Shown here: one piece after another, positions 16,407 through 60,086 of the stretch
Layout of the letters: the number at the start of each line of letters is the position of its first letter
Numbering within the stretch: position 1 is the stretch's first letter
DNA from: Thermodesulfobacteriota bacterium
GTDB lineage: Bacteria; Desulfobacterota_D; UBA1144; Nemesobacterales; UBA2774
Direction: 5' to 3'
NCBI GenBank assembly: GCA_041753155.1
Contig: JBGSVA010000041.1
Span: 7,583-71,582 of the forward strand
Length of the DNA: 64,000 nt
Position numbers and translations under genes: made by a program
Notes under the pieces: generated by a model
What the model was told of the DNA's origin: nothing
Seen by the model: the letters and a program-made list of their open reading frames with translations, nothing else
Database searches by the model: none

Positions 16407-16476
16407 GGCTTTAGTATTCCTTGACAATTCAATCTTATCAATCACCATTAATTTGTCTGAAAGGAGACCCGACGAA

Positions 16477-31804: not shown

Positions 31805-31939
31805 ATCATTCCTCCTTAACGTATGTATGTAATCTCAATTTAACTATTTCGACCGAAGAAAGTCAAGCCGTGTATTGCGGTTATGACTAAGATTAAAATA
31901 CCTACGTTACCTGGCCGGACAGGCGGCTCTTTATGCCGG

Positions 31940-32055
31940 AGGGCGGGGGATTCGAACCCCCAAGTCCTTGCGGACGCAGGTTTTCAAGACCTATACCGCG
32001 CACGTTCTTAAGTCTCCAGAATTGTTGATATATTTTTAATTCCCTTTAACATACG
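31940..32055 (-). repeat. tRNA-Ser(UGA) 3'-half fragment (31940-31997) plus a conserved ~55-bp arm. This is copy T1 of a direct-repeat family.
   Basis: The minus strand reads GGTCTTGAAAACC..variable arm..GGGGGTTCGAATCCCCCGCCCTCCGGCA. No 5' half can be folded. Confidence 0.7.
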
Positions 32056-32118
32056 ATTACCAAAACAACCCCTGACACAAGTCCTGGTTTGTACATATAT
32101 TCACACATGCTCTTCCGA

Positions 32119-37221: not shown

Positions 37222-37782
37222 ATGGCGATAAGCGTAATAGAGACATCCCTTCAGGGGGTATTCGTGATCGAATCCGACGTCCATACCGACGACAGGGGCT
37301 TCTTCAAAGAGATATACCGCTACGATAAATACCTGTCAGCGGGACTGGGCATGAAGTTCGTTCAGGATAATCACTGCCACTCGAAAAGGGGTGTTTTGAG
37401 GGGACTCCACTATCAGCTCAATTCACCGCAGGGGAAGCTCGTTATGGCCGTGACGGGCGAGGTGTTCGACGTAGCGGTGGATATAAGGAAGGGGTCTCCC
37501 GGCTACGGCAGATGGACAGGCGTATATCTATCCCCTTTAAATAACAGGCAGGTATATATTCCCGAAGGGTATGCTCACGGATATTGCGTACTGAGCGAGA
37601 GTGCGGACGTTATCTACAAATGCACCTCATTATTCGACCCCGGCGACGAGTACGGAATATTATGGTCGGACCCCGACATAAACATTGAATGGCCCGTAGT
37701 CAATCCGGTTCTTTCAGTGAGGGACGCGGGTAACCCGGCGCTCGGGGAGATAAGCGACGACGATCTGCCCGTGTATATGTAA
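37222..37782 (+). CDS. rfbC: dTDP-4-dehydrorhamnose 3,5-epimerase
   Basis: RmlC cupin motifs (DDRGFF ... RGLHYQ). The ORF-track N-extension is out of context. Confidence 0.85.
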
Positions 37783-37829: not shown

Positions 37830-38882
37830 ATGGAAAATTTGCTAGTAACAGGCGGCGCAGGTTTTATAGGCGTCAACTTCATCAGGTATCTTCTCACGGA
37901 GACGGGCTTCAGGGGACGCGTTATCAACGTGGACAAGCTTACCTATGCCGGGAACCCTGAAAGTCTTGACGGAATCGATAAGCGTTTTTCGGACAGGTAT
38001 GAGTTTATCAAAGCGGACATCTGTGATAGAGAGAAGCTTGCGCGTGTATTCGACGAGCACGATGTGGATTCGGTGTGCCATTTCGCCGCCGAATCCCATG
38101 TGGACAGGTCGATAGTCAGCGCCGAGGATTTTATCAAAACGAATATCCTCGGCACATACAACCTATTAGAGCTCGCCAGAGAGCGTACGGATCGCATTCG
38201 TCTATTCCATCATATAAGCACCGATGAAGTGTTCGGGGACCTGGACGCCGGGGGTTATTCCGCCGAGGACGCTCCCTACAGACCAAACAGTCCCTACTCG
38301 GCGTCTAAAGCCTCATCCAACCACCTTGCCAGAGCCTATTATAAAACTTACGGGCTTCCGGTGACGATCTCGAACTGCTCTAACAATTATGGACCTTATC
38401 AGTTCCCCGAAAAGCTTATCCCGCTTATGATACTGAACGCACTCGAGGGCAAGCCTCTTCCCATTTACGGAGACGGTATGAATGTGAGAGATTGGTTATA
38501 TGTGCACGACCACTGTGCAGCCGTAAAGACAATTATGGATAAGGAAAGCGGGGGGGAAACGTATAACATAGGCGGAGGGAATGAAATAACAAATATCCGG
38601 GTTGTCGAGATGATTTGCGATATGCTGGATGAGATTTTAGGCCGTCTTCCCGACGGGAAGCCCCGGAGAGACCTCATCACGCTCGTTCCCGACCGACCCG
38701 GTCACGACAGACGTTATGCAATTGAATGGAGGAAGATAAACTCCGAGCTGGGCTGGAGACCGACCGAGAGTTTTGAAAGCGGCCTCCGGAAGACCGTCGA
38801 CTGGTATCTCACCAATAAGGCCTGGGTTGACAGGGTCAGAAGCAGCGAATACAGAAAGTGGATTGATGCGCATTACGGATAA
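37830..38882 (+). CDS. rfbB: dTDP-glucose 4,6-dehydratase
   Basis: Rossmann fold TGGAGFIG. Catalytic YxxxK (YSASKAS). Confidence 0.9.
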
Positions 38883-39042: not shown

Positions 39043-40146
39043 CTAGCGGTAAAAACTTAAGCTTTCTAACTCCTGTCCCTCACCATCTACAATACGGAAA
39101 TTATATGTGCCCGGTTCCATGTTCATCCAGATATCCCTCGGAAAGCGCCATGATTTAGTTCCGCCGTCGCAAATCCTGACCGCTGCCGCAGGAATACCAA
39201 GATCATTATTCGAAATCTCGACCCATAACGGCAAGCTGCGTATCATTCCCATAGAACTGAACTCGAGAGTAGGAACGCCACACCACGGAAACGAACGCCC
39301 ATGAGCCCCCAAACCACAGTGAAATGCCAGCCGTCTCATCAGCGGGATTAGATATGAAATAAAAGTATCGAAGACTATCCCGTAGTAGCGTTTCCTGAAC
39401 ATACGGCCCGATTCCTCGAACCACTTTTTCGCCCTGGGCTCTTTTACCGCACTCCGGTTATATGCGTGCACAACTTGAGCGTCCGGCACATAGTAAGATT
39501 TCAGTCCGTTTTTCTCAAGCCTCCTGAGCCAGTCCGCCTCTTCATAATATAGCTTGTAGGCCTCGTCGAACGGCCCGACTCTGTTCCAGGTGTCCCTCCT
39601 CACAGCCAGGAGGGCGCCGCTTAAGGAGTAGCTCTCAAAGGCATCTCCGGCTTCCCAATGCCTCCTCGCGTGCACCCTCCATATACTCCTCACCCACCTG
39701 GCCCAGTCTTCCCCGAGCGCAGATGTCCTCCATATCAATTCGTTCCGCCTCTTAAGCTCCATGAGAGGCGGGAGCAGTATTATGCGTTCCGGGTCGAGAA
39801 AAAACTTCGGGCCTGCCGCGGGAGCACCTTTACAGAGCACCGACACGAGGGCGCCTAATGACCCAGGCATCACTTGAACGTCGGGGTTCATAAATATCAT
39901 GATATCAGCATTTGTGGCGCCGGCACCCAAATTGATACCCCCTGCATAGCCGAGGTTCACCCCCGGATCGAGGAGCCTTGCCGGGAGGGATCCGATAAGT
40001 CCCTTATCACGGTCGCCGCTCCCGTTATCTACTATTATTATCTCCCCTTCTATCCCGCTCGATCGCATATCGGAGCGGATTGCCTCTACAGCTTTCCGCA
40101 GCAGGTCGGGGGTGTGGTAATGAACGAGTATTAGAGCCACTTTCAT
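39043..40146 (-). CDS. Glycosyltransferase family 2
   Basis: ILVHYHTPDLL...IIVDNGSGD... motifs. Confidence 0.7.
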   Translation of the reverse strand: MKVALILVHYHTPDLLRKAVEAIRSDMRSSGIEGEIIIVDNGSGDRDKGLIGSLPARLLDPGVNLGYAGGINLGAGATNADIMIFMNPDVQVMPGSLGALVSVLCKGAPAAGPKFFLDPERIILLPPLMELKRRNELIWRTSALGEDWARWVRSIWRVHARRHWEAGDAFESYSLSGALLAVRRDTWNRVGPFDEAYKLYYEEADWLRRLEKNGLKSYYVPDAQVVHAYNRSAVKEPRAKKWFEESGRMFRKRYYGIVFDTFISYLIPLMRRLAFHCGLGAHGRSFPWCGVPTLEFSSMGMIRSLPLWVEISNNDLGIPAAAVRICDGGTKSWRFPRDIWMNMEPGTYNFRIVDGEGQELESLSFYR

Positions 40147-40213
40147 ATTAGAATTAACCTGTTTGTAAAAGGCCGCATATCATATATATGCGGCGGAATA
40201 CAGCCTGGCCGGG

Positions 40214-41218
40214 TCATGCCAGGAGACCCGTGAAAAACCGTAGGAGCGACTTTTCCGTTTCCTCTTCCGAGTACCTGAGAGCGGTCTTGTGGGCGTTCTC
40301 CCTTATCCGGTCGAGCTCGTACTGAATATTGTCGTAATTCTCGATAAGACTGAAGAGTTTATCTATGAGCGGGTAAACGTAGTTGTTCGGAAACACATAC
40401 GCATTCCGACCGTCCTCGAGATAATCCATACCGCCGTAAGCCTCGTAGCAAAGCGGGATGCATCCCGCGGCCATCGCTTCGGGGACAGTCACGTTAAACC
40501 CCTCTATCAAGTTTAGATTTACGAAAAAAGAAGACCCCTTCATAAGCTCCGAAACCCCCCGGTGAGTCATACCGTTTAGCTTCACAACATCCCAATTATC
40601 CCCGGACCTCCGTTCCCATTGTCCCGGAGACTTCGTTCCGACCGTCTCTGCTCTCTTTATCAGCAGCTTGAGGGCAATATCATAATCAACGCACCCTGCT
40701 CCGGCGTATGCGGGGTTTTGGAACAATAAAATTCTCCTTTGACGGTCTCCGGAACGGGCACCCTCATCATGGGCGAAGAAGTAAGGCGCAATAAACGGGG
40801 GGATAACTTCCGATTGAGCGCCGAAGTAAGTGTCAACGATCTTCTTTATATTGGGCATGGTGACGATTACATGGCCGTAACCGAGTTCGTCATAATTTAC
40901 GGCTTTTTCCAGCCTGTGGAGGATAAGGAACCCACCCTGAACAAACACAATCTTTTTACAGCCGGCGCTTCTCGGGAAGTCGTCGAGTACATTGACTTCG
41001 GGGACTACAAGAAAATCATTTTCTCTGATTTTGAAAGAACTGTCATTTAAATATGAAACAGGTACATCCGACTCGAACCATCGGTAGCGGTAGGGCCTTT
41101 TATGATGCAGGACAGCCGCATCGATTCCGTTTCGATTCAGTAATTTCACGTGGCCGTACAACATGCCGATGCCCCAGCTCGGCTTATCGTATTCAGGGGC
41201 AAGATAATAAATCGTCAC
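40214..41218 (-). CDS. Glycosyltransferase family 4 (GT-B, retaining)
   Basis: The C-terminal FFVNLNLIEGFNVTVPEAMAAGCIPL matches the GT4 EX7E region. Confidence 0.65.
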   Translation of the reverse strand: MTIYYLAPEYDKPSWGIGMLYGHVKLLNRNGIDAAVLHHKRPYRYRWFESDVPVSYLNDSSFKIRENDFLVVPEVNVLDDFPRSAGCKKIVFVQGGFLILHRLEKAVNYDELGYGHVIVTMPNIKKIVDTYFGAQSEVIPPFIAPYFFAHDEGARSGDRQRRILLFQNPAYAGAGCVDYDIALKLLIKRAETVGTKSPGQWERRSGDNWDVVKLNGMTHRGVSELMKGSSFFVNLNLIEGFNVTVPEAMAAGCIPLCYEAYGGMDYLEDGRNAYVFPNNYVYPLIDKLFSLIENYDNIQYELDRIRENAHKTALRYSEEETEKSLLRFFTGLLA

Positions 41219-41249
41219 GGTCTACTCACTATTAAATTCATATTGTCAG

Positions 41250-42446
41250 TCAACGGTCCGAACCGGATACGCCCTGAGCAATGTGTCTCAGTAAAGAAAG
41301 AGACTTGTAAATCAAAGAGACCGGTAATTTTGACACATGCCAGGAATCGGGAGCGGTTATTGCGTCTCTGCATCCTCGGCATATAAAATCCGCAGGAGCC
41401 TCTTCGATCCCGTATATCCAGCGCCTCATCTTTGCAAATTCCGGCCCGGTAAGGACCTCGTCCACTGTTTGTCTGTTAAGATCGCCTACTATGTAGGCAT
41501 TATTGTAGTCCTGACAGCAGAGGAAACACTCCCCCTTCGGGTTGATATGCAGGTGCTGTAGGGGGCGGGAACCTAATAACGAACAGCCCCGCAGCTTTTT
41601 ATGCGGGTTATCTGTCTTCAACCCGAGACTGAGATAACCTGCCCGGTTAGTCAAAATAGAATATTTAACATTGAAATATGATTCCGAGAAGTGTTCCGCT
41701 ATCTCTCTGAAGCTGCGGATATGGTCTTCATCCCCCATGCCCAGCACCGCTATATCCATATATTCAGCAATTTTCTTGTCTTTAATATAATCGAGGTTCC
41801 TGATAACCGTACCGACGTGGTCACCTCCGCGGTCTTTCTTATATCGTTCGCGATCCATTGTCGAAAGATTTACGGAAAGATAACCCAGCCCGCCCATGTC
41901 AATGATCTCGTCCGACCTCGATGGCGTAAGACCGGTCGCGTTCGTGTTCACCGCAGGACGGAAGCCGTGTTTCTTAATAAGTCTTATCTGATCCACAAAC
42001 CGCTTGTCGGCTGTAGGCTCGTTGTAGCTGATCATGAAAACGAGCTCCACGGTATTGCGGTAAACCGACAGCTGCCTCAATATATCTTCATAAAACTCGA
42101 TGGGCATAAAATATTCTTCTCTCGGATTTATCGAAACGGGACAGAAATAACACGCCTGATTGCATACCGTATTCGCTTCGATCGATACGAATTTAAGATA
42201 AAAGCGTTTTGACAATTCCTCATTGCTTATATGCGGGATTATCCACCCCTCACTCTCAAGGAGATGTTTTAAATCCGGGGACAAAGAATCCACAGAACGT
42301 TTTCCCGATGCCATAGCCCTCAATTCCCCGTATCCCAGGTCATTAGGCAGGATAGTACGGTTTGTCAAAGGGTTATAGATACGGTCCCGATGTAAATTCA
42401 GATAAGGTTCCGCAATCGACCTCTTACTCGCCTCTTCTCCATCCAT
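41250..42446 (-). CDS. Radical SAM enzyme with a C-terminal SPASM/twitch Cys cluster and a ~95-aa N-terminal extension
   Basis: CNQACYFC (CX3CX2C). The C-terminus has CSLLGS...ECFLCC...CRGC. GGAGGAG RBS. Confidence 0.75.
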   Translation of the reverse strand: MDGEEASKRSIAEPYLNLHRDRIYNPLTNRTILPNDLGYGELRAMASGKRSVDSLSPDLKHLLESEGWIIPHISNEELSKRFYLKFVSIEANTVCNQACYFCPVSINPREEYFMPIEFYEDILRQLSVYRNTVELVFMISYNEPTADKRFVDQIRLIKKHGFRPAVNTNATGLTPSRSDEIIDMGGLGYLSVNLSTMDRERYKKDRGGDHVGTVIRNLDYIKDKKIAEYMDIAVLGMGDEDHIRSFREIAEHFSESYFNVKYSILTNRAGYLSLGLKTDNPHKKLRGCSLLGSRPLQHLHINPKGECFLCCQDYNNAYIVGDLNRQTVDEVLTGPEFAKMRRWIYGIEEAPADFICRGCRDAITAPDSWHVSKLPVSLIYKSLSLLRHIAQGVSGSDR

Positions 42447-42562
42447 TAACTTATTAATCTCTCCTCCATATATATAGTTTTTACATAATGCCGTTCACTT
42501 TAATTACGACATCACCTACTTTATCCACACCACTGGTATACGCGAAAGTTAAAGCCTCATTT

Positions 42563-43384
42563 TTATCTAAACAGTGCATCCCTCACCCTAAACACGATAG
42601 GCGGTACGAATAATGCGACTGCATCTTTTAATTTTTGCGCCCTTTCGGCTTTCCTCAGCGTCTGCCCGGGTTTCAGTTTAAATAAGGTAGTATGATCTTC
42701 GAGCCCTATTTTTATCTCCTCCTCCGGTCTGCCGTTCGTGTAATAGTAGAGCGCGAGGGATTTCCTGCTTCCGCCGTTGGGGCAGTTTACAGGAGTAGGG
42801 TTGCCGTGGTACGAAAAATCCGTTGTAGAAAACACGACTGCCGTATTGTATGCGGGTACAACCATTCTGTGACACACTTTCATTTCCCTGTCCCAGAGTT
42901 CGAGCTGTCCGCCGTTTTCGTCCGTCCACCCTTTATTCAGATAAATGAGAAGATTGAGCCTCCTGTCGAGTCTCATCTTAGGGTGCCTGTTAAAATCTGC
43001 GTGTATGTTGAGAAACCCTCCGTGCTTCAGCTCGTGCAGCCCGCCGCCGAAAAAGTGAGGGTCGGGGACGAGGCCGTCTATGCCCGTCATCCCTTCCAGG
43101 AAATCTATAAACGGTTTTGAATTCAGGAAATGGAGGAACAATGTTGTGCGTGGGCCGAAATGGTCTTCGCCGATACTTGCAAGCTTGACTTCATGCTCAT
43201 TATCGTACTCCAGCTTCATCCGAGACCTGCTCAAATCGGGAAACTCATCAAGCACTGCGTCGAGTATCTCTTCATTAAAAAGACCCTCTATTACGATGTG
43301 GGGAAAAGGAGGATTGTTTTGGTATTCATCCGCCTTTTCCTTTCCAAGTCCGCCGAGATCGGTCTTTAACCAGTGCATATACAC
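42563..43384 (-). CDS. 2-oxoglutarate/Fe(II)-dependent oxygenase (prolyl-hydroxylase-like fold)
   Basis: HxD...H facial triad candidates (NIHADFNRH ... SYHGN). Confidence 0.55.
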   Translation of the reverse strand: MYMHWLKTDLGGLGKEKADEYQNNPPFPHIVIEGLFNEEILDAVLDEFPDLSRSRMKLEYDNEHEVKLASIGEDHFGPRTTLFLHFLNSKPFIDFLEGMTGIDGLVPDPHFFGGGLHELKHGGFLNIHADFNRHPKMRLDRRLNLLIYLNKGWTDENGGQLELWDREMKVCHRMVVPAYNTAVVFSTTDFSYHGNPTPVNCPNGGSRKSLALYYYTNGRPEEEIKIGLEDHTTLFKLKPGQTLRKAERAQKLKDAVALFVPPIVFRVRDALFR

Positions 43385-43740
43385 TATTTATTTAACCTCC
43401 TGTGCCGCTTCGATTTATCATCGAAGTATTTCATCCGGATTTAGTTATTTCGTCACCGGAGCTGAAATTAATGAACTCCACTTATTTTTTTCGAAAATGC
43501 TCAACAGGATTACATTGGAGAACAAAATCACAGTATCCATCCTCTGCGGGGCTTTTGTGGTTATTTTTAAGGCCTCTCCAATATATTTTGCTAGACCAGT
43601 ATACCTTGAAAACACACTTACAATAACATGCACATACATTATTGAAGCATTATACATATATTAATGTATTCGCGCAATTATAATCTCCTACTGTGCCGGA
43701 TATATAACATGAGAATTGTCTGAGGATATATAAGCTTTTC

Positions 43741-43935
43741 TCAGCCGAGGAGGCTCGAAAAAAAACTCCTCATTTCTTGAGAGAATTGCTTTCTTGAATA
43801 ACACCTTAGGGCAATGGACTGCATTTGTTCTATCTCCATAGCGAGCTCATCGGCGCTTTTATTATAAACTTCAATAATGCTTCCGGGAATATCCCTGCGC
43901 TTGATATATGTGTACTCACATCTTTGACCTATCAT
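43741..43935 (-). CDS. Candidate small protein (64 aa) translationally coupled to the upstream sulfotransferase
   Basis: ATGA stop/start overlap with the sulfotransferase. GGAG sits 8 nt upstream of the ATG. No homology is recognised. Confidence 0.3.
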   Translation of the reverse strand: MIGQRCEYTYIKRRDIPGSIIEVYNKSADELAMEIEQMQSIALRCYSRKQFSQEMRSFFSSLLG

Positions 43936-44813
43936 TCAGAAAACTCCGGCCAAAGGGAAGTATCAATTTCCGGAAACATCTTTATCATCGCCTGGACGTC
44001 CGGTGAATAATATCTTGCAAGACGTTCTCTTTCCTCTTTCGTGATATCCGGAATTTTATGCACTATACGATTGACGGGTCTCTCGGGGTTTGCGGGCTTA
44101 TACCCGTCATCAATTCCCAGAAATCTGTACGTTCGCGAAATCTCCGTATAAATATCCAGCTTGCACTTTTCATACTGCAATATCAGAATTTGATCGCGTT
44201 CGAAAAGGGATAAGAGCCTTGAAAGAGAAAACGAGAGGGAACTTTGCGTTATTGAATCAGGAAATACCCAAAACAATTCTACCATATGATTGAGGTCGGT
44301 TCCGAGATCAAAACGCTCGGAATATACAGATGTGAATTGATTTAAATGTGAGATAAACCTATCGATAGGGTTTCTGAGAACTATGAGAATTTTAGTCTCG
44401 GGAGCGGCTCCGGCCAAATAATCCAGGGCTAACGGGTACCAGAGATAACTCGGGGACCATTCTCCGCTTATACAGTTGTCGGGGGAGGCAAAGGCCTGAC
44501 GGTAAACGGAAATATCTTCCTTACTTATCCCATGAGTGCCGAAATGGTAGAAATAAGCGAGTTCCTTTTCTTTCAGTCTGTTCTCCACCACTTGTGGATG
44601 TTCCAGGAGCAACGAATACCACCAGGTAGTGCCAGCCTTAGGACTGGCGACACCTACGAAATCAGGGCCTTTGATCTTCCAGTTATCCGGTATCCGACAG
44701 AGATCCGACGTCCTGAAAGGGCGCGTCATAGGGGTATAAGCAGGGGGTCCGCCGGATTTTCCGGTCCTCGATGTTTTATTCCAAACGCTCTTTAATAAAT
44801 TCTTCATGACCAA
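43932..44813 (-). CDS. Sulfotransferase (PAPS-dependent, Sulfotransfer_3-like)
   Basis: 5'-PSB motif PKAGTTW and 3'-PB motif RNPIDR. Confidence 0.75.
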   Translation of the reverse strand: MVMKNLLKSVWNKTSRTGKSGGPPAYTPMTRPFRTSDLCRIPDNWKIKGPDFVGVASPKAGTTWWYSLLLEHPQVVENRLKEKELAYFYHFGTHGISKEDISVYRQAFASPDNCISGEWSPSYLWYPLALDYLAGAAPETKILIVLRNPIDRFISHLNQFTSVYSERFDLGTDLNHMVELFWVFPDSITQSSLSFSLSRLLSLFERDQILILQYEKCKLDIYTEISRTYRFLGIDDGYKPANPERPVNRIVHKIPDITKEERERLARYYSPDVQAMIKMFPEIDTSLWPEFSE

Positions 44814-44955
44814 TATCCGATTACCGGGAAATAACCTCGATCAAGTCTTCTAAATCGAAATTCATTGCAGCTTCATTTAGGTTCATGTAATTCTTATCGA
44901 ACATTTATCTCCACCCATTCGGTGGTGTAAAAAGCCCAATTTCTCATCTTTCACG

Positions 44956-45801
44956 TTAGCCATATCCCTTTCTTCTGCTGACCGTTCTTTTAATATATCC
45001 AGTGCAGTGCTCAGAACTTATGGTCCTTTTGTCACCCAGACTCCAGTCGTTTGCATAACCGTATCTCTCCATATATTCGGCAAACAACGGTTTGAAAAAA
45101 TCAACATCCTCCGGGAGGAACCAGTTCCTCCAGTCGCCATACCCCCTTGTCCTCGGGACATGGCTGTTTTCCTCGCCGACTTCAGCCTCGCCGGTCAGCC
45201 TGAACCCGAGGTACTGTTCAAGTCCCTGAAGGTCTCCGTCCACAAAATTCTCGTACCTGATCCTGCAATGCTCCCCCATCCTGCCCTCGAATCCATAGAT
45301 CCAATTTTGTTGACTTTTCATCCAATCGGCAACCTTACCTAGCGACTCGCCGGGTATTAAATTCAGAACCTGTTGTAATAATGAAACGAATGAGATACTT
45401 TCCGGGTTCTCTTCCTTTTTTTTGAACAGGGTTAATACAAAATCGAGATTGTCGTCATTTTCATATATAGACGGCGACTGTTGTATTAAGAACAGCAAGC
45501 CGCTTACGACCCAGTCCCTCGGGTCTCTGACTATGTAGATTTTTTTGTCGAATCCCATGAACGATGTGTAATTCGCGACCTCCCGCCCGTCCACGAATCC
45601 GAGAATAACCTTGGCTAATTCGGCCGGATAGGATTTAAGCGGTTCAGGAATGTAATTCACAGGTTCATTAAGAAGCCTGGCTCCGGCAGGGAGAGAGTTA
45701 TAAATTTTGTAGCATAATGCCGTAGTGCCTGATTTGTATTGGCCGAATATAACAATTCTTATCTTATCTGAAAAAGGTACAGTGAGTATCGTCCCAGCCA
45801 T
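44956..45801 (-). CDS. Sulfotransferase family protein (second paralogue)
   Basis: GQYKSGTTAL P-loop-like 5'-PSB motif. IVRDPRD 3'-PB motif. Confidence 0.65.
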   Translation of the reverse strand: MAGTILTVPFSDKIRIVIFGQYKSGTTALCYKIYNSLPAGARLLNEPVNYIPEPLKSYPAELAKVILGFVDGREVANYTSFMGFDKKIYIVRDPRDWVVSGLLFLIQQSPSIYENDDNLDFVLTLFKKKEENPESISFVSLLQQVLNLIPGESLGKVADWMKSQQNWIYGFEGRMGEHCRIRYENFVDGDLQGLEQYLGFRLTGEAEVGEENSHVPRTRGYGDWRNWFLPEDVDFFKPLFAEYMERYGYANDWSLGDKRTISSEHCTGYIKRTVSRRKGYG

Positions 45802-45870
45802 AATTGAATTTTACTATATTCGGAGTGAGGCTGATACCTTCAAATACTAAGGAGATGAATCCCAGCCTGC

Positions 45871-47874
45871 TCACGTAATCGTTCTTCGCCTAAAAAAATT
45901 CAATATCCTGAGAGGAACGATTTTTCTTACGGTGCTGTAGATTGTCCAGATAAAATAATTATTAATCAATGAGTTGCCGGTGGCCGGTTTACGTACTCCC
46001 GCATGTCTTTCAGCCAGGGCTCTCCTCAAATATCGGTTCTCCTCGTAAACCTCATCGATCCGCTTGATAAACCATTTTTCATAATCCCCGGTCTTGAAAT
46101 AGTCGCTGTATTTATCGTATATCTTAAAGCGCCACTCGTTGTAATTATAATCGCGCTCGGCGAATACCCTGTATTCCGCGGTGATACCGGGAAGTCTCTG
46201 TATATAGGTATGAGTCGCTATTCTGAGCCACAGGTCCCAGTCCTCATATATCTCGAGCCCTTCATCCGGATAATCAATCTCTTCGAGCAAAGCCTTCGCA
46301 AACATGAGGGTCATGTTTGGGATGTAGTTAAAGACATGCAGCTGATCGAGATCATGATCCACTCCTCTGAAAGGCTTCTTCTCACCTTTAAGTATGAACT
46401 CGCTGCCGTGCCACTCGTAACCGGCTATTTCGCAATCGCTGTATGCGGCTTTCTCGCCCGTCGTTTCAAGATATCTTGCCAGCTTCTCCACATGACCGAC
46501 ATGAAACAGGTCATCGTCGTCAAGAAAATTGATATATTTCCCCCCGGCAGCTCTAATCCCCTCGTTCCCGGCTGCTGACCGTCCCCTGGGTTCGTCGAAT
46601 TTGATATACCTTACGGGAATATATTTCTGGAATTCCTCTACGACCCCCGTAACATCCTCCCCTCCGTCATTTACAATGACGGCCTCGATGTTCGGATAAG
46701 TCTGCATAACGATGCTCGATAGAGTATCCCTAAGCAAAAGCGGCCTGTCTTTCGTACGCACTATTACAGAGACGAGAGGCGTATCTTCCTTAAACCGGTT
46801 AAAAGCGGACAAAAACTGTTCCCGTGAGAATTTCTCCACGTGATTATCAATCAGCTCTCCGCTCTTCATCAGAAAGAAACCCTCGGCGTAAGCGGCGGAG
46901 CTAAGCGTAAGGGAGCGGAAACGGTTAAGGGAGAGCGCTATGTCGGAGTAGGGAACATTTTCCAGCTGACTCTTGTACGCTTCACAGGCTTTCCGCTTGC
47001 GCTCGACCGCGGATGTGATATCGACAAGCGCGTTCACCCTGATCGCCGTGTTGATTTCACAGAATGCAATTACGCAGTCAGCACATGCTTTTTGCGCGGA
47101 ACGACAGACTATTTCGGCCGCTGCACGGTGGTCGGGATGGAATTCAAACGGCGACGGGACATAAATAAGGTCCGGTCTGTAGTTCTCCAGGAGCACGGAA
47201 AGACGGTCTATATTCCGGTTGTCAGGTTCGAGGCCCCTATCGGGGTTCCTCCAGAACTCGAGATCCGAAACTCCCAGTATTTCGCATGCCCTCCTGGCCT
47301 CGGATTCTCTCAATTCGACATAGTCCTCTTTCCTGTGCTTTCCGGAAAAATCGGCCTTCGACCCGTCGGTGAGGAAAACAACTTTTACAGGGTCACCGCT
47401 TTTCCGATGATGTATGATACTCCCGCCGCAGCCGAAGCATTCGTCATCAGGGTGGGGAGCGATCACCAGAACTTTGTTGCCTGTAAGCTCAGCCGCTTCA
47501 TACGGTATGATCTTCTCCTCGTGGAGGGTATTAAGAACGACAGGGCTGCCCGCCAATTCTTGCCCCGTCTCCCCGAAAATAAACTGTAATTCATGCCTCA
47601 CCCCGTCGAGATACCCGGAAGATATCCGGTATATGAACCCGTGATATCCCCTCCCATACCCTTTTTCCTTGAGGTCCCATCTGTAATAAGAAGGTGTGAA
47701 CCCGTCGACAGGATTCCCGCCTTCCTTCACGATAACACGTAAAGGCTCGTCCGGGCAGGACTTATCAAGCGCCCATCCCTTCACAATGGAATCGTCGTGA
47801 TATTCGATCTCGCCGATGTAATCGGATTCGGCCGCAGGCATGGACTTTCCAAATCTTTCCTTGATATATTTCAT
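45871..47874 (-). CDS. Three-domain protein: N-terminal unknown region, PIG-L/LmbE deacetylase and GT2 glycosyltransferase
   Basis: LVIAPHPDDECFGCGGS (PIG-L). VSVIVRTKDRP...VIVNDGGED...FLDDDD (GT2). Confidence 0.75.
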   Translation of the reverse strand: MKYIKERFGKSMPAAESDYIGEIEYHDDSIVKGWALDKSCPDEPLRVIVKEGGNPVDGFTPSYYRWDLKEKGYGRGYHGFIYRISSGYLDGVRHELQFIFGETGQELAGSPVVLNTLHEEKIIPYEAAELTGNKVLVIAPHPDDECFGCGGSIIHHRKSGDPVKVVFLTDGSKADFSGKHRKEDYVELRESEARRACEILGVSDLEFWRNPDRGLEPDNRNIDRLSVLLENYRPDLIYVPSPFEFHPDHRAAAEIVCRSAQKACADCVIAFCEINTAIRVNALVDITSAVERKRKACEAYKSQLENVPYSDIALSLNRFRSLTLSSAAYAEGFFLMKSGELIDNHVEKFSREQFLSAFNRFKEDTPLVSVIVRTKDRPLLLRDTLSSIVMQTYPNIEAVIVNDGGEDVTGVVEEFQKYIPVRYIKFDEPRGRSAAGNEGIRAAGGKYINFLDDDDLFHVGHVEKLARYLETTGEKAAYSDCEIAGYEWHGSEFILKGEKKPFRGVDHDLDQLHVFNYIPNMTLMFAKALLEEIDYPDEGLEIYEDWDLWLRIATHTYIQRLPGITAEYRVFAERDYNYNEWRFKIYDKYSDYFKTGDYEKWFIKRIDEVYEENRYLRRALAERHAGVRKPATGNSLINNYFIWTIYSTVRKIVPLRILNFFRRRTIT

Positions 47875-47898
47875 CGGATATCAGATCAAAAAATCGAT

Positions 47899-48942
47899 TC
47901 AGAACATATCGGTATCGCCCATTGTAAAATAAAGTCTCCTCGATAATTCATATGAATCCACATTTGAGTCCAAAGGTGTTGTTGTTATAAACAGCGCATA
48001 TGGATTCCCGCCTTCGCTCATATCTCTTGATTTCAGCACCTCTTTTGCTTCCTCATCATTACATAGCCACATTTCCACTTTTCTTGCCCCCAAAAGAACA
48101 GCCAGATTCCAGATCCGCCGCTCTAGTTCCGTAATAGTCGATGGATCCTTTCCATCCCATATCAAATCCACCCACTTAAGAATTCTGTCATCAAGGCTAA
48201 GCACAGCAAAACCATGCGGAACGCCATTGTCTACAACTATTAAATAATAGTATTTTTTTAGCGGATGGCTCAAATACCGCCGATGTATATATTCCATGTC
48301 TCTCACAGCCGAAACGGGGTAACGGACCGAAGCCCTCGACCACAACTCACCGATATAACTTAAATCTACATAGCTGCGGGAGGTAAGAAAACTCCATATT
48401 ATTCGACTCATTACGAGCCCGCGCACCCTATGAAATAAATTCAACCGTTTGCTGAGATATACGATAGGTACGCATTCCGTATAATTCATCATCAATCTGC
48501 CCAATTTCAGATGCCTCTCTCCCAGGCAGCCGTATAATAATGCAATGTTATCCTTGGCTCCGAATTGTGCGCGGAAAGCATCAAACGTTTTTATATATAG
48601 TTTTTTCCTGACTACATATTCCCTTTGAAGAGAATAGCAATCCACGGCCTGAGCGCAGTTCAGAATCTTTCCATTCATCTGTATTCTGGAAAGGAGGGTG
48701 GAGAAATTGACCAGAACCTCGTTATTTTCGTCAACAGCCAGCATTATGCGAGAGCCGGCGTCGCTGTCACGGCCGAATTTCCAGTACCATTCCTCTATAG
48801 TGCGATTCGCACCGAAGACCTCGTTGAAACCCCGGTTGATTGAGATTTCATCCCCTGTCTCATACGGCCGTATTGTCTGGCTATCCATTTGCATCAAGTG
48901 AGCCGACCGAGAATTTCTTAATCCTGTCCATAAGTGCTTCAC
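47899..48942 (-). CDS. Hypothetical protein, GNAT-fold/FemAB-like acyltransferase candidate
   Basis: It sits in the operon context. Weak resemblance to Acetyltransf_6-type proteins. No firm motif. Confidence 0.35.
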   Translation of the reverse strand: MKHLWTGLRNSRSAHLMQMDSQTIRPYETGDEISINRGFNEVFGANRTIEEWYWKFGRDSDAGSRIMLAVDENNEVLVNFSTLLSRIQMNGKILNCAQAVDCYSLQREYVVRKKLYIKTFDAFRAQFGAKDNIALLYGCLGERHLKLGRLMMNYTECVPIVYLSKRLNLFHRVRGLVMSRIIWSFLTSRSYVDLSYIGELWSRASVRYPVSAVRDMEYIHRRYLSHPLKKYYYLIVVDNGVPHGFAVLSLDDRILKWVDLIWDGKDPSTITELERRIWNLAVLLGARKVEMWLCNDEEAKEVLKSRDMSEGGNPYALFITTTPLDSNVDSYELSRRLYFTMGDTDMF

Positions 48943-48945
48943 GGA

Positions 48946-50085
48946 TCAAGTTTTTATAATCACATAAAAACCCTTGGTTTCCAAGCTGTCCATATCTGTC
49001 TCGAATAGACTCGATAGCTTTCTGAACCGCGCCGGGAGCTCGGTCTTCTGGGGGATTATTTTGTAAGAACTTATCCCGGACCTTTCTACCCAGTCTTCCA
49101 ATGTTCTTCTCGTGAAAAAGCGGAAATGCGTATAGCACAAAAGACCGATCGGGACATAATCCCATCTCCCTGCCAAGAGGTCTTCCACGACGGAGTAATG
49201 TCCGACGTTCGGCACGGATAGAACTATACGTCCCCCTGGTCTCAGTACCGATTTCATTTTTAAAAGAAAGTCTTCCGGGTAGTTCAGGTGCTCGAACAGC
49301 TCCGTAGCAAGGACGACGTCGTACTTCTCATCTATGTCCAGCTCCTGAATATCCCCGCAGATAACACGCGAAATGTGACTCCGCGCATCCGACGCGATGT
49401 CGGAGTTGAGTTCAACCCCCGTGACGCGGCATCCAAGCTTATTCTGTAGGAATTCGCCGGTAAGCCCACGCCCGCAACCTATTTCAAGAATCTCTTCGGC
49501 GCCTTCCGGAATATAGGGTAGTATGTCCTCCCTAATCTCGCCGTAATAGTCGATAAACTGATGGAATACGCCCGCATGGGTCGTCCGGTTTCCGAGCCTG
49601 AGGTTCTTGAAAAGCTCTTTGTCCGTCAATACCTCTTCCACGGATGTTCTATTCAATACTTCACGGAATGAATCTGCAGAGAAAAGGGATATCGGGAGGT
49701 GCGAGTCGTTCAATTCAAAGGGCTTATGGAATTCGTTGAATATGCGTTTTTCTATTAGCTCGTAACCGCGAATCGTATAGATAGGCGATTCACCCGTTAC
49801 TTTAAATTTAGATATAGAATTAGGTAATACGGCAGAGACCCGTGTATTCAGCGCATTTGTCATATGAATTAAGGTTTCCGCAGTGAAAAACAAATTCTCC
49901 TTACCCAGAACCAGAACGTAATCGGCTGCCGGCAGTAGAGGCTCTCCGCTGCCTTCACGCCAAACGAGTGTTTCGACCTCGAAGGCTTTTCTTGCCCGAT
50001 TAACGCAATATGAGAAGAGATACCTGAATTCAGGGGATTCGGCGTTTTCAGAGGTCAGATGTTTAAGAACCACCAACTTGGACAT
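48946..50085 (-). CDS. Two-domain protein with a C-terminal class I SAM-dependent methyltransferase
   Basis: ILEIGCGRGLTG ... LRPGGRIVLSVPN. Confidence 0.7.
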   Translation of the reverse strand: MSKLVVLKHLTSENAESPEFRYLFSYCVNRARKAFEVETLVWREGSGEPLLPAADYVLVLGKENLFFTAETLIHMTNALNTRVSAVLPNSISKFKVTGESPIYTIRGYELIEKRIFNEFHKPFELNDSHLPISLFSADSFREVLNRTSVEEVLTDKELFKNLRLGNRTTHAGVFHQFIDYYGEIREDILPYIPEGAEEILEIGCGRGLTGEFLQNKLGCRVTGVELNSDIASDARSHISRVICGDIQELDIDEKYDVVLATELFEHLNYPEDFLLKMKSVLRPGGRIVLSVPNVGHYSVVEDLLAGRWDYVPIGLLCYTHFRFFTRRTLEDWVERSGISSYKIIPQKTELPARFRKLSSLFETDMDSLETKGFYVIIKT

Positions 50086-50185
50086 TTGTCTCCGGTGACT
50101 GCTCTAACGATTATCAGATGTTACCAGCAGGCGTCGAAATTTAAACCAATTAAGTATTATATTCAACCGTTCTCCGAATCGTTTT

Positions 50186-51073
50186 TTAAGGCTTGGGAAC
50201 GGCTTTCCGGCCGTGTCTTATAGAAATATATTCCCCGAGGGCTTCCTCCCATTGCCTGAGCCTTCTTATTCCTGCGCTTTCCAGTTTTGCATTATCGAGG
50301 ACGGAATATCGGGGCCTTTCGGCTCTTGCCCTGTATTGTTCCGATGTGACCGGGACTACATCGGGGCTCACACCCGCCGCATCGAAGATAGCCGTCCCAA
50401 ACCGATACCACGAGCATTCCCCGGAATTCGTGATGTGGTAGGTACCGTAGTCTTCTTCTTCAAGCAGTTCCGCAATCTTTAAGGCAAGGTCCCGCGTGAA
50501 TGTGGGAGACATCACCTGATCGTCGACTATCTTTATCCGTCCCCCATTCTCAGCGAGTCTTATCATGGTCTCTACAAAATTATGTCCGCGTTTTGCCGGA
50601 AGCCCCAGGCCGAAAAGCCCCGAAGCACGGATGATGAAATGCCGGTCGCACTTACCCATTACCAATCTCTCGCCATCGAGCTTTGAAATACCATAGGCGT
50701 TCAGGGGATGAGGCTCGTCTGTCTCCGTATACGGCTTTCCCTTTTTTCCGTCGAACACATAGTCGGAGCTGATATAAACACAAACCGCACCTGCCCCGGA
50801 GCAAGCGTCCGCGACATGACCCGCGCCCTCCGCATTTAGCAGCATCGCATACGCAGAATCAATTTCACAGCCGTCTACATCTGTATGCCCCGCCGCGTTG
50901 ATTACTATGTCGGGCGTGTGATGACCGATAGTGCTAAATACCGAGTCCCTGTCAGTCAGGTCGAGTTCAAGCCTTCCGGCAGAAATAACACCATAGCTCT
51001 CTTTTTCACGGAACACGTGTACGAGGTCAGCGCCTAGCTGTCCTGTCGGACCGATTATCAATACCTTTTTCAT
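50186..51073 (-). CDS. rfbD: dTDP-4-dehydrorhamnose reductase
   Basis: MKKVLIIGPTGQLG plus an RmlD-like sequence. YxxxK is present. Confidence 0.85.
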   Translation of the reverse strand: MKKVLIIGPTGQLGADLVHVFREKESYGVISAGRLELDLTDRDSVFSTIGHHTPDIVINAAGHTDVDGCEIDSAYAMLLNAEGAGHVADACSGAGAVCVYISSDYVFDGKKGKPYTETDEPHPLNAYGISKLDGERLVMGKCDRHFIIRASGLFGLGLPAKRGHNFVETMIRLAENGGRIKIVDDQVMSPTFTRDLALKIAELLEEEDYGTYHITNSGECSWYRFGTAIFDAAGVSPDVVPVTSEQYRARAERPRYSVLDNAKLESAGIRRLRQWEEALGEYISIRHGRKAVPKP

Positions 51074-51209: not shown

Positions 51210-51412
51210 TGGCGGAGGGCGAGGGATTCGAACCCCCAAGTCCTTGCGGACGCCGGTTTTCAAGACCTATATCGCGCACGTTCTTAAGTCTCCAGAATTG
51301 TTGAAATATTTCTAATTCCCCTTTAATAAACGAATTCCATCTATTCCATATGGTCTACTGAGTATATATGATTCGAATAATTACGGATGGTTCTTAGAAA
51401 ATGCTTGGAAAG
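51210..51412 (-). repeat. tRNA-Ser(UGA) 3'-half fragment (51210-51267) plus a ~145-bp conserved arm. This is copy T2.
   Basis: The minus strand reads ...GGGGGTTCGAATCCCTCGCCCTCCGCCA. The arm shares ctttaataaacgaattccatctattccatatggtcta and ggatggttcttagaaaatgctt with T3. Confidence 0.75.
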
Positions 51413-51532: not shown

Positions 51533-51561
51533 TTGACATTATACCTACTAGTAGATAGAAT
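51533..51561 (+). promoter_or_regulatory. Sigma70 promoter (TTGACA-N17-TAGAAT). A CTACTAGTAG palindrome (51545-51554) sits in the spacer. The downstream TetR transcript is predicted to be leaderless.
   Basis: The hexamers and palindrome are read directly. The ATG at 51569 lies ~7 nt after the -10 and has no SD sequence. Confidence 0.6.
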
Positions 51562-51568
51562 ATTTGTC

Positions 51569-52135
51569 ATGAGCAACGAAGTGTCTGACAAAATATTAGA
51601 TGTTGCGCTGGATTATATAATGGGAAGAGGTTATAAAGCCTTCAGCTATAAAGACATTTCCAAGGAAATCGGCATTAAAACGTCGAGTATTCACTATTAT
51701 TTCCCAACCAAGGGCGATCTCGGCAAAACATTGGCCCAAAGATTCTTCCAATACATTACAGAGGCGTTAGAGTTAATCGATAAGACCACCGAAGATCCAA
51801 AAGAAAAAATCAGAAAATTCATACGTATTTTTTATGAAAACTTAAAATCAGGCAATAGGGCGTGCCCGGTTGCAATGCTATCATCAGACTATGAAAATCT
51901 GCCGGAGGAAGTTAAACGAGAAGTAATTAACCTTATTCAATTGCAGGAAACATGGCTTGCGAAAGTGTTGGAATCGGGTATCAAAAAGAAGGTCTTTAAA
52001 TTTTCGGGCAAGCCGAACGATAAAGCTAAAGCGATCTTTTCCGCCATTGAAGGCGCAACAATAGCATCCAGAGCATTTTCTGATCCGGGCAGAATACTTA
52101 TAACGGAAGATTTGATCATGAATAGCATTACCTAA
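51569..52135 (+). CDS. TetR/AcrR-family transcriptional regulator
   Basis: N-terminal HTH (YKDISKEIGIKTSSIHYYFPTKGDL). Confidence 0.85.
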   Translation: MSNEVSDKILDVALDYIMGRGYKAFSYKDISKEIGIKTSSIHYYFPTKGDLGKTLAQRFFQYITEALELIDKTTEDPKEKIRKFIRIFYENLKSGNRACPVAMLSSDYENLPEEVKREVINLIQLQETWLAKVLESGIKKKVFKFSGKPNDKAKAIFSAIEGATIASRAFSDPGRILITEDLIMNSIT

Positions 52136-52150
52136 AAAATTTTAAAACCC

Positions 52151-52178
52151 GTATCTATCTAGTGCTAGATAGATACGA
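52151..52178. promoter_or_regulatory. Perfect 13-bp-arm palindrome CGTATCTATCTAG-tg-CTAGATAGATACG. It is a probable TetR operator upstream of the hydrolase gene.
   Basis: Exact inverted repeat. The half-sites resemble the palindrome inside the TetR promoter. Confidence 0.5.
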
Positions 52179-52290
52179 ATATGCGTACAGGAGGGAATTA
52201 AATGAAGACAAAAATATATAGGTAACATTTGACGAAATTTTATTGTGCTTTCGGCAACAGCAAATTATCAAATTTAAGGAGACAATAAAA

Positions 52291-53319
52291 ATGAGCATAT
52301 TAACCATAAGTAGAATCGCAATGTATGCAGTACTCATATTAACGTGGACAGTAAGCCCACTTGTTATCAATGGTAGTAATCTATTTAGTTCACCTGTAAT
52401 AGCAAAAGAGCAGTCCATAAATAATTACCCCATTCTATATAAAACCGTGAAAATCGACGGACTCGATATATTTTATCGAGAAGCCGGACCGAAAGATGCT
52501 CCGACTATTATTCTGCTTCACGGCTTTCCCACATCATCACATATGTTTCGGAATCTAATTCCTGAACTCTCGGACACATACCATGTGATCGCCCCCGATT
52601 ACCCAGGATTCGGATACAGCTCAATGCCTAGTGTCGATCAATTCGAATACACATTCGACAATCTGGCCTTGGTAATTGAGAAGCTTATAAACAAATTAGA
52701 GCTAGGAAAATATAGCTTATACCTTCAGGACTACGGTGCCCCGGTGGGATTTCGTATTGCTGAAAAGAACCCGGATAAAGTCGAGGCTCTTATTATTCAA
52801 AACGGCAATGCTTACGATGAAGGTCTACGTGATTTTTGGATTCCGCTCAAATCCTATTGGAAAGAAAGGACTCCAGCTAATGCAGAACCCCTTAAAGCAT
52901 TTCTGACTCTGGATGCAACTAAGTGGCAGTTCACGCACGGAGTTCGGAATGTTGACACAATTAGTCCCGACAATTGGAACCACGTTCAACCGCTTCTTGA
53001 CCGTCCCGGTAATCAGGAAATACAGCTGCAACTTTTTTATAGTTATGGTTCGAATCCGCCCCTGTATCCTTCCTGGCAAGCTTATCTAAGAAAATATCAG
53101 CCTCCGACTCTAATAGTTTGGGGTAAGAACGATCAGATATTCCCGGCTGAGGGCGCATACCCGTACAAGCGTGATTTAAATAATCTTGATTTCCATTTGC
53201 TCGATACAGGACACTTTGCTCTCGAAGAAGATTTGCATGTAATTGCTTCTCTAATCAGGAGTTTCCTGGATAAAAACGTTATTCAGAAATCCACAATGGA
53301 AAAACAGGCCGAGAAATGA
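52291..53319 (+). CDS. Secreted alpha/beta-hydrolase (epoxide hydrolase/haloalkane dehalogenase-like)
   Basis: AAGGAG RBS and a signal peptide. [11 protein letters not shown] is the oxyanion region. The nucleophile elbow is LQDYGAP. Confidence 0.75.
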
Positions 53320-60068: not shown

Positions 60069-60086
60069 CTTGTGTTTAATAATGTT

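Follow-up and report, generated by a model that had tools for sequence, protein, structure and literature searches.

Closest described systems and the locus under study

Sulfated glycans have been documented in few bacterial systems, namely synechan and a few marine capsules. Synechan, a sulfated exopolysaccharide, is made by Synechocystis sp. PCC 6803 from its xss cluster, which has two sulfotransferase genes and a Wzx/Wzy system; the product holds rhamnose as well as sulfate, the modification being presumed to take place in the cytoplasm on a lipid-linked unit (PMC8205485). Here, we describe a 12-kb block of minus-strand genes in a window of 64,000 nt, the whole stretch of DNA that was analysed, from contig JBGSVA010000041.1 of a Thermodesulfobacteriota bacterium (GCA_041753155.1, positions 7,583-71,582; all coordinates below are window positions). 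The block lies between the dTDP-L-rhamnose genes rmlACB and rmlD and, with a probability that we put at roughly two in three, represents the conserved core of a locus for a rhamnose-linked glycoconjugate of the cell surface in uncultured Thermodesulfobacteriota, a locus to which the rml ends equally belong and which would never have been split by an insertion. The rml genes and the block comprise the following features.

36347-37216, plus strand: rmlA, glucose-1-phosphate thymidylyltransferase (TIGR01207, 452 bits, cut-off 360.65)
37222-37782, plus strand: rmlC, dTDP-4-dehydrorhamnose 3,5-epimerase (TIGR01221, 226 bits, cut-off 155.75; ATG start at 37222 read from the sequence)
37830-38882, plus strand: rmlB, dTDP-glucose 4,6-dehydratase (TIGR01181, 482 bits, cut-off 365.1)
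39043-40146, minus strand: GT2a, a soluble family 2 glycosyltransferase (GT2) resembling WbbL, GlfT1 and rhamnosyltransferases; core gene (Pfam GT2; weak NCBIfam matches to rhamnosyltransferase, GlfT1 and MftF)
40214-41218, minus strand: GT4-type glycosyltransferase (GT); core gene (Pfam Glycos_transf_1)
41250-42446, minus strand: radical S-adenosylmethionine (SAM)/SPASM enzyme; core gene (Pfam Radical_SAM 66.1 bits, cut-off 29.5; SPASM 40 bits, cut-off 21.5)
42563-43384, minus strand: 2-oxoglutarate (2OG)-Fe(II) oxygenase of the prolyl-4-hydroxylase-like superfamily; core gene (Pfam 2OG-FeII_Oxy_3, 64 bits)
43385-43931, no strand: intergenic gap of 547 bp, 37% GC, containing an open reading frame (ORF) of 70 amino acids and a pseudogene remnant
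43747-43905, minus strand: the pseudogene remnant, last 53 codons of a GT4-like gene (tblastn against the GT4 in the slot of relative L086, 47% identity, E 1.6e-9)
43932-44813, minus strand: ST1, sulfotransferase of the 3'-phosphoadenosine-5'-phosphosulfate (PAPS) type, heparan-sulfate-like carbohydrate class, in a variable slot (Pfam Sulfotransfer_1, 58.3 bits, cut-off 22)
44956-45801, minus strand: ST2, divergent sulfotransferase of SULT fold, near-core cassette gene (Pfam Sulfotransfer_1, 24.3 bits, cut-off 22, a marginal pass)
45871-47874, minus strand: PIG-L::GT2 in three parts, an N-terminal domain (about residues 1-115) without assignment, a PIG-L de-N-acetylase and a GT2 (Pfam PIG-L 116.5 bits, cut-off 28.2; GT2 87 bits)
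47899-48942, minus strand: putative N-acyltransferase of 347 amino acids, tandem GNAT resembling Eis and N-myristoyltransferases (fold and fusion homology, no Pfam match)
48946-50085, minus strand: methyltransferase, an N-terminal domain of about 180 amino acids without assignment followed by a class I SAM domain; accessory gene (Pfam Methyltransf_23, 75 bits)
50186-51073, minus strand: rmlD, dTDP-4-dehydrorhamnose reductase (TIGR01214, 299.7 bits, cut-off 224.05)

The ten large minus-strand ORFs lie where an earlier note on this DNA had placed them (ORF map and Pfam), and the four proteins of the dTDP-L-rhamnose pathway (RmlA, RmlB, RmlC and RmlD) all score above their NCBIfam equivalog cut-offs, which bears out the arrangement described there of rfbA-C-B on the plus strand and rfbD on the minus strand with the block between them. 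The domains listed for the large ORFs were likewise confirmed by Pfam, except that the GNAT-like call holds by fold and fusion with no profile match and that a small ORF counted among the genes has no conserved frame. Contrary to its description, the block is not tightly packed throughout, its genes being separated by 3-142 bp with the sole exception of the 547-bp gap between ST1 and the 2OG gene (43385-43931). This gap probably holds an internal promoter and, since it is AT-rich and contains a pseudogene remnant, a single operon is unproven. Hydropathy analysis found transmembrane segments in none of the ten block proteins, all of which are therefore taken to be soluble.

The likeness of this locus to xss is one of gene content, two sulfotransferase genes among many GT genes. 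The xss cluster has its own Wzx, Wzy, polysaccharide co-polymerase (PCP) and priming GT, none of which is found in the window, whereas the cassette has PIG-L, GNAT, radical-SAM and 2OG genes, all four of which are missing from xss.

Rhamnose cell-wall and O-polysaccharide loci resemble it in that the genes for dTDP-rhamnose flank, or are scattered around, the GT genes that consume it, but they carry ABC transporters or polymerases and are not known to have sulfotransferase, PIG-L, radical-SAM or 2OG genes. The streptococcal Group A carbohydrate locus starts with gacA, which is rmlD, so that rmlD stands apart from rmlABC.

A further likeness is to the pathways of mycothiol and bacillithiol (MshA-MshB-MshD; BshA-BshB) and of butirosin (BtrM-BtrD-BtrN), which bring together a GT transferring N-acetylglucosamine (GlcNAc), a PIG-L-family deacetylase and, as in MshD, N-acylation by a tandem GNAT; in the case of butirosin, BtrN is also the closest solved relative of the radical-SAM enzyme. 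However, scores for BshB1, BshB2, MshB and Mca do not come near their cut-offs (92.8 against 182.5, for example), and the cassette has no Cys ligase, inositol-phosphate gene or 2-deoxystreptamine gene. The presence of rml genes, several additional GTs and sulfotransferases points to a glycan. No description of this cassette was found in the literature searched, and judged from its genes the locus appears to be a mosaic one for a surface glycoconjugate, as yet uncharacterised and with a conserved tailoring core of an unusual kind. Follow-up is warranted for its conserved set of sulfation genes, for the polymorphism of the variable slot and for the ST2 family.

Conservation of the block and the question of insertion

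Contigs with related loci, compared gene by gene, are designated by L-numbers and homologous proteins by P-numbers. In L084 the order is rmlD, GNAT-like gene, PIG-L::GT2, ST2, a fatty-acid hydroxylase gene, 2OG, radical SAM, GT4 and GT2a, with rmlB-C-A and a GT2 gene found upstream of the block also in the window on the opposite strand, at 67-81% amino acid identity to the window (38% for the GNAT-like allele). Four contigs, L171, L172, L001 and L004, are 88-98% identical to the window, save for swapped GNAT-like alleles at 41%, and have both the cassette and its TetR-rmlD flank in common with it, and the block occupies the same site in these four and in L084. At 53-73% identity the core is kept in the same order in L003, L086 and L169, where the gene for adenosine-5'-phosphosulfate (APS) kinase lies immediately upstream of the cassette, accompanied in L003 and L169 by a Bac_transf initiating transferase; L086 has an rmlD-type reductase gene upstream of the cassette and L003 has rmlA downstream. 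A more distant arrangement was seen in L087 (ENA ERZ25039495 contig_45140, 3.3 Mb), with ST2, a PIG-L::GT2::GNAT fusion, radical SAM, GT4 and 2OG rearranged at 44-52% identity, and in the Dadabacteria contig L006 only PIG-L::GT2, GT2a and rmlA of the locus are found (partial). The core order GNAT-like gene, PIG-L::GT2, slot, 2OG, radical SAM, GT4 and GT2a is kept from 90% down to about 60% identity, GT2a itself at 42-72% in L003, L006, L084, L086, L088 and L169 (97% over the covered part in L171) and the core GT4 gene at 45-91% in relatives. Carriers belong to the Thermodesulfobacteriota, the Anaerolineae and, for the partial locus, the Dadabacteria, so that conservation of this cassette with its sulfotransferase genes extends to lineages that are distant from each other and mostly uncultured.

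The GC content of the block varies with its carrier, from 34-36% in low-GC hosts through 46-47% in the clade of the window to 61% in L087, and is equal to that of the flanks or a few points below. Because relatives share the layout and the GC of the block tracks that of the host, the cassette appears to have been long resident and inherited with the rml genes; on its synteny, the block is of long standing in the rml locus, conserved along with it, and not a foreign insertion.

The earlier note had proposed the opposite, that a foreign operon of lower GC, 12 kb long, was inserted into a formerly contiguous rmlACBD operon within an island bounded by two elements, T1 and T2. Its lower GC is real and modest, 47.1% compared to 52.3% for rmlACB (rml genes 52.3-52.4%) and to 53.2% in the housekeeping part of the window, and two neighbouring regions are low as well, the cellulose synthase (bcs) operon at 47.9% and a pair of TetR and hydrolase genes at 39.4%. 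Gene-level exchange, which would also favour an insertion, clearly occurs within the locus. The claim of a split locus finds no support, since the rmlD-block-rmlBCA layout recurs in L084 at 70-80% amino acid identity and the core order persists at about 60%; comparison of gene content found the block syntenic in relatives, by which the proposal largely fails on its own terms. The core cassette also has rml genes nearby in L003, L086 and L006, and separation of rmlD from rmlABC is a known arrangement, as in streptococcal rhamnose-polysaccharide loci, which counts against insertion as well. A split rml locus of lower GC is no evidence of an island here.

The remaining support for an island comes from direct repeats with a tRNA-Ser-like 3' fragment, of which three copies were found.

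31934-32135, no strand: repeat copy 1, direct, about 200 nt, opening with a 57-nt reverse-complemented tRNA-Ser-like 3' fragment
51210-51411, no strand: repeat copy 2, in the rmlD-TetR intergenic region, absent from L001, L004, L171 and L172
53417-53618, no strand: repeat copy 3, direct copy of the same repeat of about 200 nt

The first 57 nt of each copy are the reverse complement of the 3' part of a tRNA-Ser(UGA)-like sequence, from the anticodon loop to CCA. The repeats at 31.9 and 51.2 kb, the latter probably being the T2 of the note, bracket a 19-kb locus including the rml genes rather than the block, and no att repeat was found at the block border at 39.0 kb; the third copy is at 53.4 kb. 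At the position of copy 2, the four close relatives L001, L004, L171 and L172 have 23 bp instead of about 188 bp, with the same cassette in the same place, so that location within a T1-T2 island is no sign of acquisition. Degenerate tRNA-like sequence with the T-arm and acceptor 3' end intact, uncalled by ARAGORN, is present between rmlD and TetR in L001 (2500-2630) and L004 (870-1000). No integrase was found among the window ORFs scanned and no intact tRNA in the window or in five relatives (ARAGORN), the Rfam search of the window matched no family, the repeat of about 200 nt gave no RNA structure signal (z = +1.0), and megablast of rmlACB against plasmids gave no match. The repeats resemble att-type remnants left behind by integrative elements at a degenerate tRNA site and not markers of acquisition of the block, and insertion of the whole block is in our judgement very unlikely.

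Two sulfotransferases

Both sulfotransferases carry a 5'-phosphosulfate binding (5'-PSB) and a 3'-phosphate binding (3'-PB) motif, as had been claimed. ST1 has PKAGTT at residue 58 and RNPIDRFIS at residue 147 and matches Sulfotransfer_3 as a second Pfam family (39.1 bits, cut-off 27). Its matches in the PDB are 3rnl, a bacterial sulfotransferase (E 1e-8; the alignment spans both PAPS-binding motifs), the N-sulfotransferase domain of NDST1 (E 1e-4) and the heparan-sulfate 3-O-sulfotransferases (3-OSTs). In ST2 the corresponding motifs are KSGTT at 23 and RDPRDWVVS at 92, with GDWRNWF at 222; across 38 homologues G25, R92-D96, S100 and W224 are invariant and K23, T26, G222 and W227 nearly so. 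By sequence alone ST2 matched only cytosolic sulfotransferases, weakly, and its AlphaFold model, built from the family alignment (mean predicted local distance difference test (pLDDT) score 92.6), has PAPS sulfotransferases for all of its top 46 fold matches in the PDB, at template-modelling scores (TM-scores) of only about 0.45. The two sulfotransferase calls therefore passed the profile and motif tests and ST2 in addition the fold test. Identity as P-loop kinases is ruled out by the PAPS motifs, the profiles and the sulfotransferase fold of ST2.

A full profile search of 1.84 billion representatives placed about 800 clusters (50% identity) in the ST2 family at E<=1e-30. Clusters with a source name were called 'hypothetical protein' only and none was functionally named in the collections searched; the family would be a new, predicted source of glycan sulfotransferases. 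The partners to which ST2 is fused are informative. PIG-L::GT2::ST2 proteins occur in P0232 and P0237, and others join ST2 to GT2, GT4 or WbsX glycosyltransferases, to the glycan-binding domain Wzt_C or to a Sulfotransfer_2 domain (fusion proteins are among P0228, P0232, P0233, P0237, P0263, P0295, P0352 and P0187-P0198). An ST2::methyltransferase fusion is encoded in L005 (14-1696), and the context of a Wzt_C::ST2 fusion in L175 was uninformative. An exact-sequence look-up of ST1 and PIG-L::GT2 in a protein collection returned no match. The pathway for a sulfated, methylated and acylated glycan that the earlier note had proposed is supported as far as sequence goes, with both sulfotransferase calls holding and ST2 found fused to glycan domains.

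The NDST1 sulfotransferase domain and the 3-OSTs are the best characterised solved relatives of ST1, and a de-N-acetylase is encoded two genes away from it, which gives the same logic of deacetylation followed by sulfation as in NDST. The difference is that the deacetylase here is of PIG-L type and joined to a GT2, and that ST1 is an exchangeable slot gene and not part of the core. N- and O-sulfation by ST1 fit its motifs and matches alike. A far-reaching reading of these likenesses would be that the core (PIG-L::GT2, tandem GNAT, ST2, 2OG and the BtrN-like radical-SAM enzyme) constitutes an undescribed pathway of several phyla in which glucosamine loses its N-acetyl group and receives sulfate or an unusual acyl group in its place, a bacterial counterpart of NDST chemistry on heparan sulfate. 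We consider this quite improbable; if true, it would add radical-SAM and oxygenase steps on the sugar without characterised precedent in surface-glycan synthesis.

De-N-acetylation, N-acylation and the nature of the product

PIG-L::GT2 is the anchor gene of the cassette and has more than 3000 homologues. Its metal-binding motifs HPDD at 141 and HPDH at 246 are nearly invariant in 21 homologues, and DDDD at 452 likewise varies little or not at all in the family. Its closest public relatives are from uncultured Thermodesulfobacteriota, with 88% identity to the metagenome-assembled genome (MAG) SMAG_U16376 and about 60% to other MAGs. In phages and plasmids tblastn gave only distant GT2 or PIG-L matches, including a 34% homologue on a Methyloprofundus plasmid, and a metagenome scan with the family alignment gave, among the matches listed, mostly distant loci with PIG-L only. 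A second, stand-alone PIG-L deacetylase gene (15738-16448, minus strand) adjoins gatB in the housekeeping part of the window.

The 347-amino-acid protein encoded next to it in the cassette had no Pfam or NCBIfam match even at E 0.1, and sequence and profile searches of the PDB were empty. Foldseek with its AlphaFold model (pLDDT 87) retrieved tandem GNATs of the Eis type and N-myristoyltransferases (E 8e-12 to 8e-10, TM-score 0.5-0.6). An alignment spanning the whole protein was also obtained with the C-terminal domain of fusions PIG-L::GT2::X of 1000-1100 amino acids, several of which carry PF13527 (Acetyltransf_9). On its modelled fold and these fusions, and not on a profile, the protein is a GNAT as had been proposed. 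PIG-L::GT2 is fused to GNAT in P0046 and P0064 and to a methyltransferase in P0074. Read together, the fusion proteins tie glycosyl transfer, de-N-acetylation, N-acylation, sulfation and methylation to a single predicted glycan substrate. The N-terminal domains of PIG-L::GT2, of the methyltransferase and of the radical-SAM enzyme gave nothing in Pfam but a sub-threshold match to 2C_adapt.

These enzymes could also act on a membrane glycolipid or lipo-oligosaccharide instead of a polysaccharide, which we regard as a serious alternative, if an unlikely one. The GT2 would add GlcNAc to a lipid or short glycan, PIG-L would deacetylate it, and the tandem GNAT would, like an N-myristoyltransferase, add a longer acyl chain prior to the addition of sulfate, methyl and hydroxyl groups. 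Such a product agrees with the solubility of all block enzymes and the absence of a polymerase or exporter from the window, and with a GNAT fold that matches N-myristoyltransferases as well as it matches Eis. Close relatives also have a membrane fatty-acid hydroxylase with three His boxes in the slot, fragments of beta-ketoacyl synthase III (KAS III) adjoin the GNAT-like gene in L088, and L087 has an MBOAT gene. By analogy, the same logic is found in Nod factors (NodC/B/A/S/H/PQ), glycosylphosphatidylinositol (GPI) anchors and mycothiol. The parallel to the Nod-factor pathway (NodC/NodB/NodA/NodS/NodH with NodPQ) would extend over GT2, de-N-acetylation, N-acylation, methylation and PAPS-dependent sulfation, and to the APS kinase beside the cassette in relatives. 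However, NodB is a carbohydrate esterase of family CE4, NodA forms a family of its own and matches to NodS and NodC are of a generic kind and fail the NCBIfam cut-offs, and no match to a Nod, Msh or GPI family exceeded its cut-off. The three to four GTs of the cassette plus the rml genes argue against such a product, as do the Bac_transf initiating transferases adjoining the cassette in L003 and L169, the Wzm/Wzt genes near the distant homologue on the Methyloprofundus plasmid and the fusion of some ST2 homologues to Wzt_C.

The radical-SAM enzyme, the oxygenase and a peptide alternative

The radical-SAM/SPASM enzyme carries CNQACYFC (CxxxCxxC) at residue 95 and six C-terminal Cys residues, and its best relative in the PDB is BtrN, a sugar/aminocyclitol dehydrogenase (E 6e-10). 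The 2OG oxygenase has H-A-D (HxD) at residue 128 and RKS at 207 and is the most conserved core gene, with 70-73% identity where its neighbours have 53-63%. SPASM enzymes often act on peptides, and the pair could, together with the GTs and sulfotransferases, modify a peptide or protein, either a ribosomally synthesised and post-translationally modified peptide (RiPP) or a hydroxylated, glycosylated and sulfated surface protein. The oxygenase has the cyclophane-peptide oxygenase YhhC as its best curated match and prolyl 4-hydroxylases as neighbours in the PDB, YydG is a weak PDB match of the radical-SAM enzyme, a small ORF is located just upstream of the 2OG gene, and a GT2 and GT-C pair upstream of the block is most like Pgf protein-glycosylation proteins. 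The YhhC score of 44 bits is, however, far below the cut-off of 150, the best solved relative of the radical-SAM enzyme is BtrN, no PqqD/RRE domain was detected in its N-terminus, and ST2 is fused to glycosyltransferases rather than to peptide-modifying domains.

The small ORF of 70 amino acids (43445-43657) has no family match and its frame is lost in L001, where the DNA is 86% identical, and in L003, L086 and L169 the genes abut with no small gene beside 2OG. It is probably not a gene, judged from these comparisons, and as a RiPP precursor it was rejected on its broken frame in a relative. With neither a conserved precursor gene nor an RRE domain, a peptide or protein substrate appears highly improbable.

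What varies between close relatives

DNA comparison of near-identical strains (89-95% identity) delimits a replacement slot extending from the 3' end of ST2 (about 44981) to 43883/43712. ST1 occupies this slot in the window and in L172-L174 (92% amino acid identity in L173 and L174) as well as in L003 (57%), a GT4-like gene of 394 amino acids takes its place in L171, with GT4-like genes also in L086 and L169, and L001 and L084 have the integral-membrane fatty-acid hydroxylase with three His boxes. The remnant at 43747-43905 has DNA homology to the 3' end of the GT4-like gene of L171, and since these 53 codons lie beside ST1 they suggest that a GT4-like gene once occupied the slot in the window and was later replaced by ST1 in this lineage.

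The methyltransferase gene (48946-50085) is present in L004, L171, L172, L003 and L169 and absent from L001 and L084. It is 98% identical in L004 and L172, where neighbouring genes are 88-95% identical, which points to recent recombinational transfer as a single gene. The GNAT-like gene has two alleles, 41% identical, both of which stand in tandem in L003 and L169. Judged from these sequences, exchange is real for single genes only, namely ST1, the methyltransferase and the GNAT allele, and the pattern of the locus is a mosaic typical of surface-antigen loci. The swap of ST1, GT and hydroxylase genes among near-identical strains offers a clean natural experiment in surface-structure diversification.

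Proposed assembly and points against it

From the domain identities, motifs, folds, fusions and synteny described above we infer in what order the enzymes act, on which substrates, and what kind of product they make. A lipid-linked acceptor would be primed by a phosphoglycosyl transferase encoded elsewhere (Bac_transf adjoins the cassette in two relatives) and extended with L-rhamnose supplied by RmlABCD, via GT2a, with other sugars by GT4 and with an N-acetylhexosamine by the GT2 domain of PIG-L::GT2. The fused PIG-L domain would then strip the N-acetyl group, and the free amine may be re-acylated by the tandem GNAT or sulfated by ST1. ST2 and ST1 would add sulfate from PAPS and the methyltransferase methyl groups, and the 2OG oxygenase and radical-SAM enzyme may carry out oxidative tailoring. 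A further sugar would probably be added outside the cytoplasm by the upstream pair of GT2 and YfhO-like GT-C. The slot allele, whether ST1, GT4-like or fatty-acid hydroxylase, would make the product strain-specific in a manner comparable to serotype variation. Since the block proteins are soluble and neither an initiating transferase nor an exporter or APS kinase is encoded in the window, the block would be a cytoplasmic assembly-and-tailoring module that relies on genes elsewhere.

A number of observations weigh against a cell-surface glycoconjugate locus as the explanation. The window ORFs include no initiating phosphoglycosyl transferase, flippase, polymerase or ABC transporter; the gene set of a self-contained polysaccharide locus of the Wzx/Wzy or Wzm/Wzt type is not found in the window, which leaves polysaccharide, oligosaccharide, glycolipid and glycoprotein as candidate products. 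For the supply of the sulfate donor, tblastn found no APS kinase in the 64-kb window. No cassette enzyme passes an NCBIfam equivalog cut-off, as the rml genes do, and no homologue of a cassette enzyme is characterised. The fatty-acid hydroxylase that relatives carry in the slot would be better explained by a product bearing lipid than by a plain polysaccharide. Scans for promoters and terminators gave no excess over shuffled controls, and GC in the block is some 5 points lower than in the rml genes at its flanks.

Neighbouring genes

The three genes reported just upstream of the block (32-36 kb), for a YfhO-like GT-C protein, a methyltransferase and a GT2, were all recognised by Pfam.

32119-34353, minus strand: YfhO-like GT-C membrane glycosyltransferase with about 10 transmembrane segments (Pfam YfhO, 72.7 bits; hydropathy; best NCBIfam match PgfM2, weak)
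34513-35271, plus strand: class I SAM methyltransferase, upstream of the block (Pfam Methyltransf_11/23/25)
35287-36075, minus strand: upstream GT2 resembling polyprenyl-phosphate sugar synthases (PgfS/PpgS/ArnC-like; Pfam GT2, 101.7 bits; best NCBIfam matches PgfS and PpgS, below cut-off)

The upstream GT2 (35287-36075) is syntenic in L084 at 72% identity and, from its sequence relatives, is the likely partner of the YfhO-like GT-C. The two would correspond to the pairs PgfS/PgfM, PpgS/Rv3779 and CsbB/YfhO, with PgfS/PpgS as the best match of the GT2 and PgfM2 of the GT-C, both weak; the scores fall well short of the cut-offs (69.7 against 500 and 32.5 against 1500) and no flippase of the GtrA type was seen. 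Just outside the YfhO gene, an RTX protein of 162 amino acids with calcium-binding repeats (31316-31804, minus strand) could be secreted or surface-located.

On the other side of the locus, the TetR regulator and alpha/beta hydrolase genes (51533-53319) have the lowest GC of the region (39%; GC at third codon positions (GC3) 0.40-0.42) and are placed precisely between copies 2 and 3 of the repeat. This position suggests a small islet of their own, yet L001, L004 and L172 have both genes too. A complete cellulose synthase operon (53745-62357, minus strand) with bcsA (including PilZ), bcsB, the GH8 endoglucanase gene bcsZ and bcsC stands directly beside the glycan locus. In L087 (1-9000) the cassette directly follows a phage-tail-like module with the tape-measure protein TMP_3 and large unannotated proteins, and may there be prophage-borne or prophage-adjacent.

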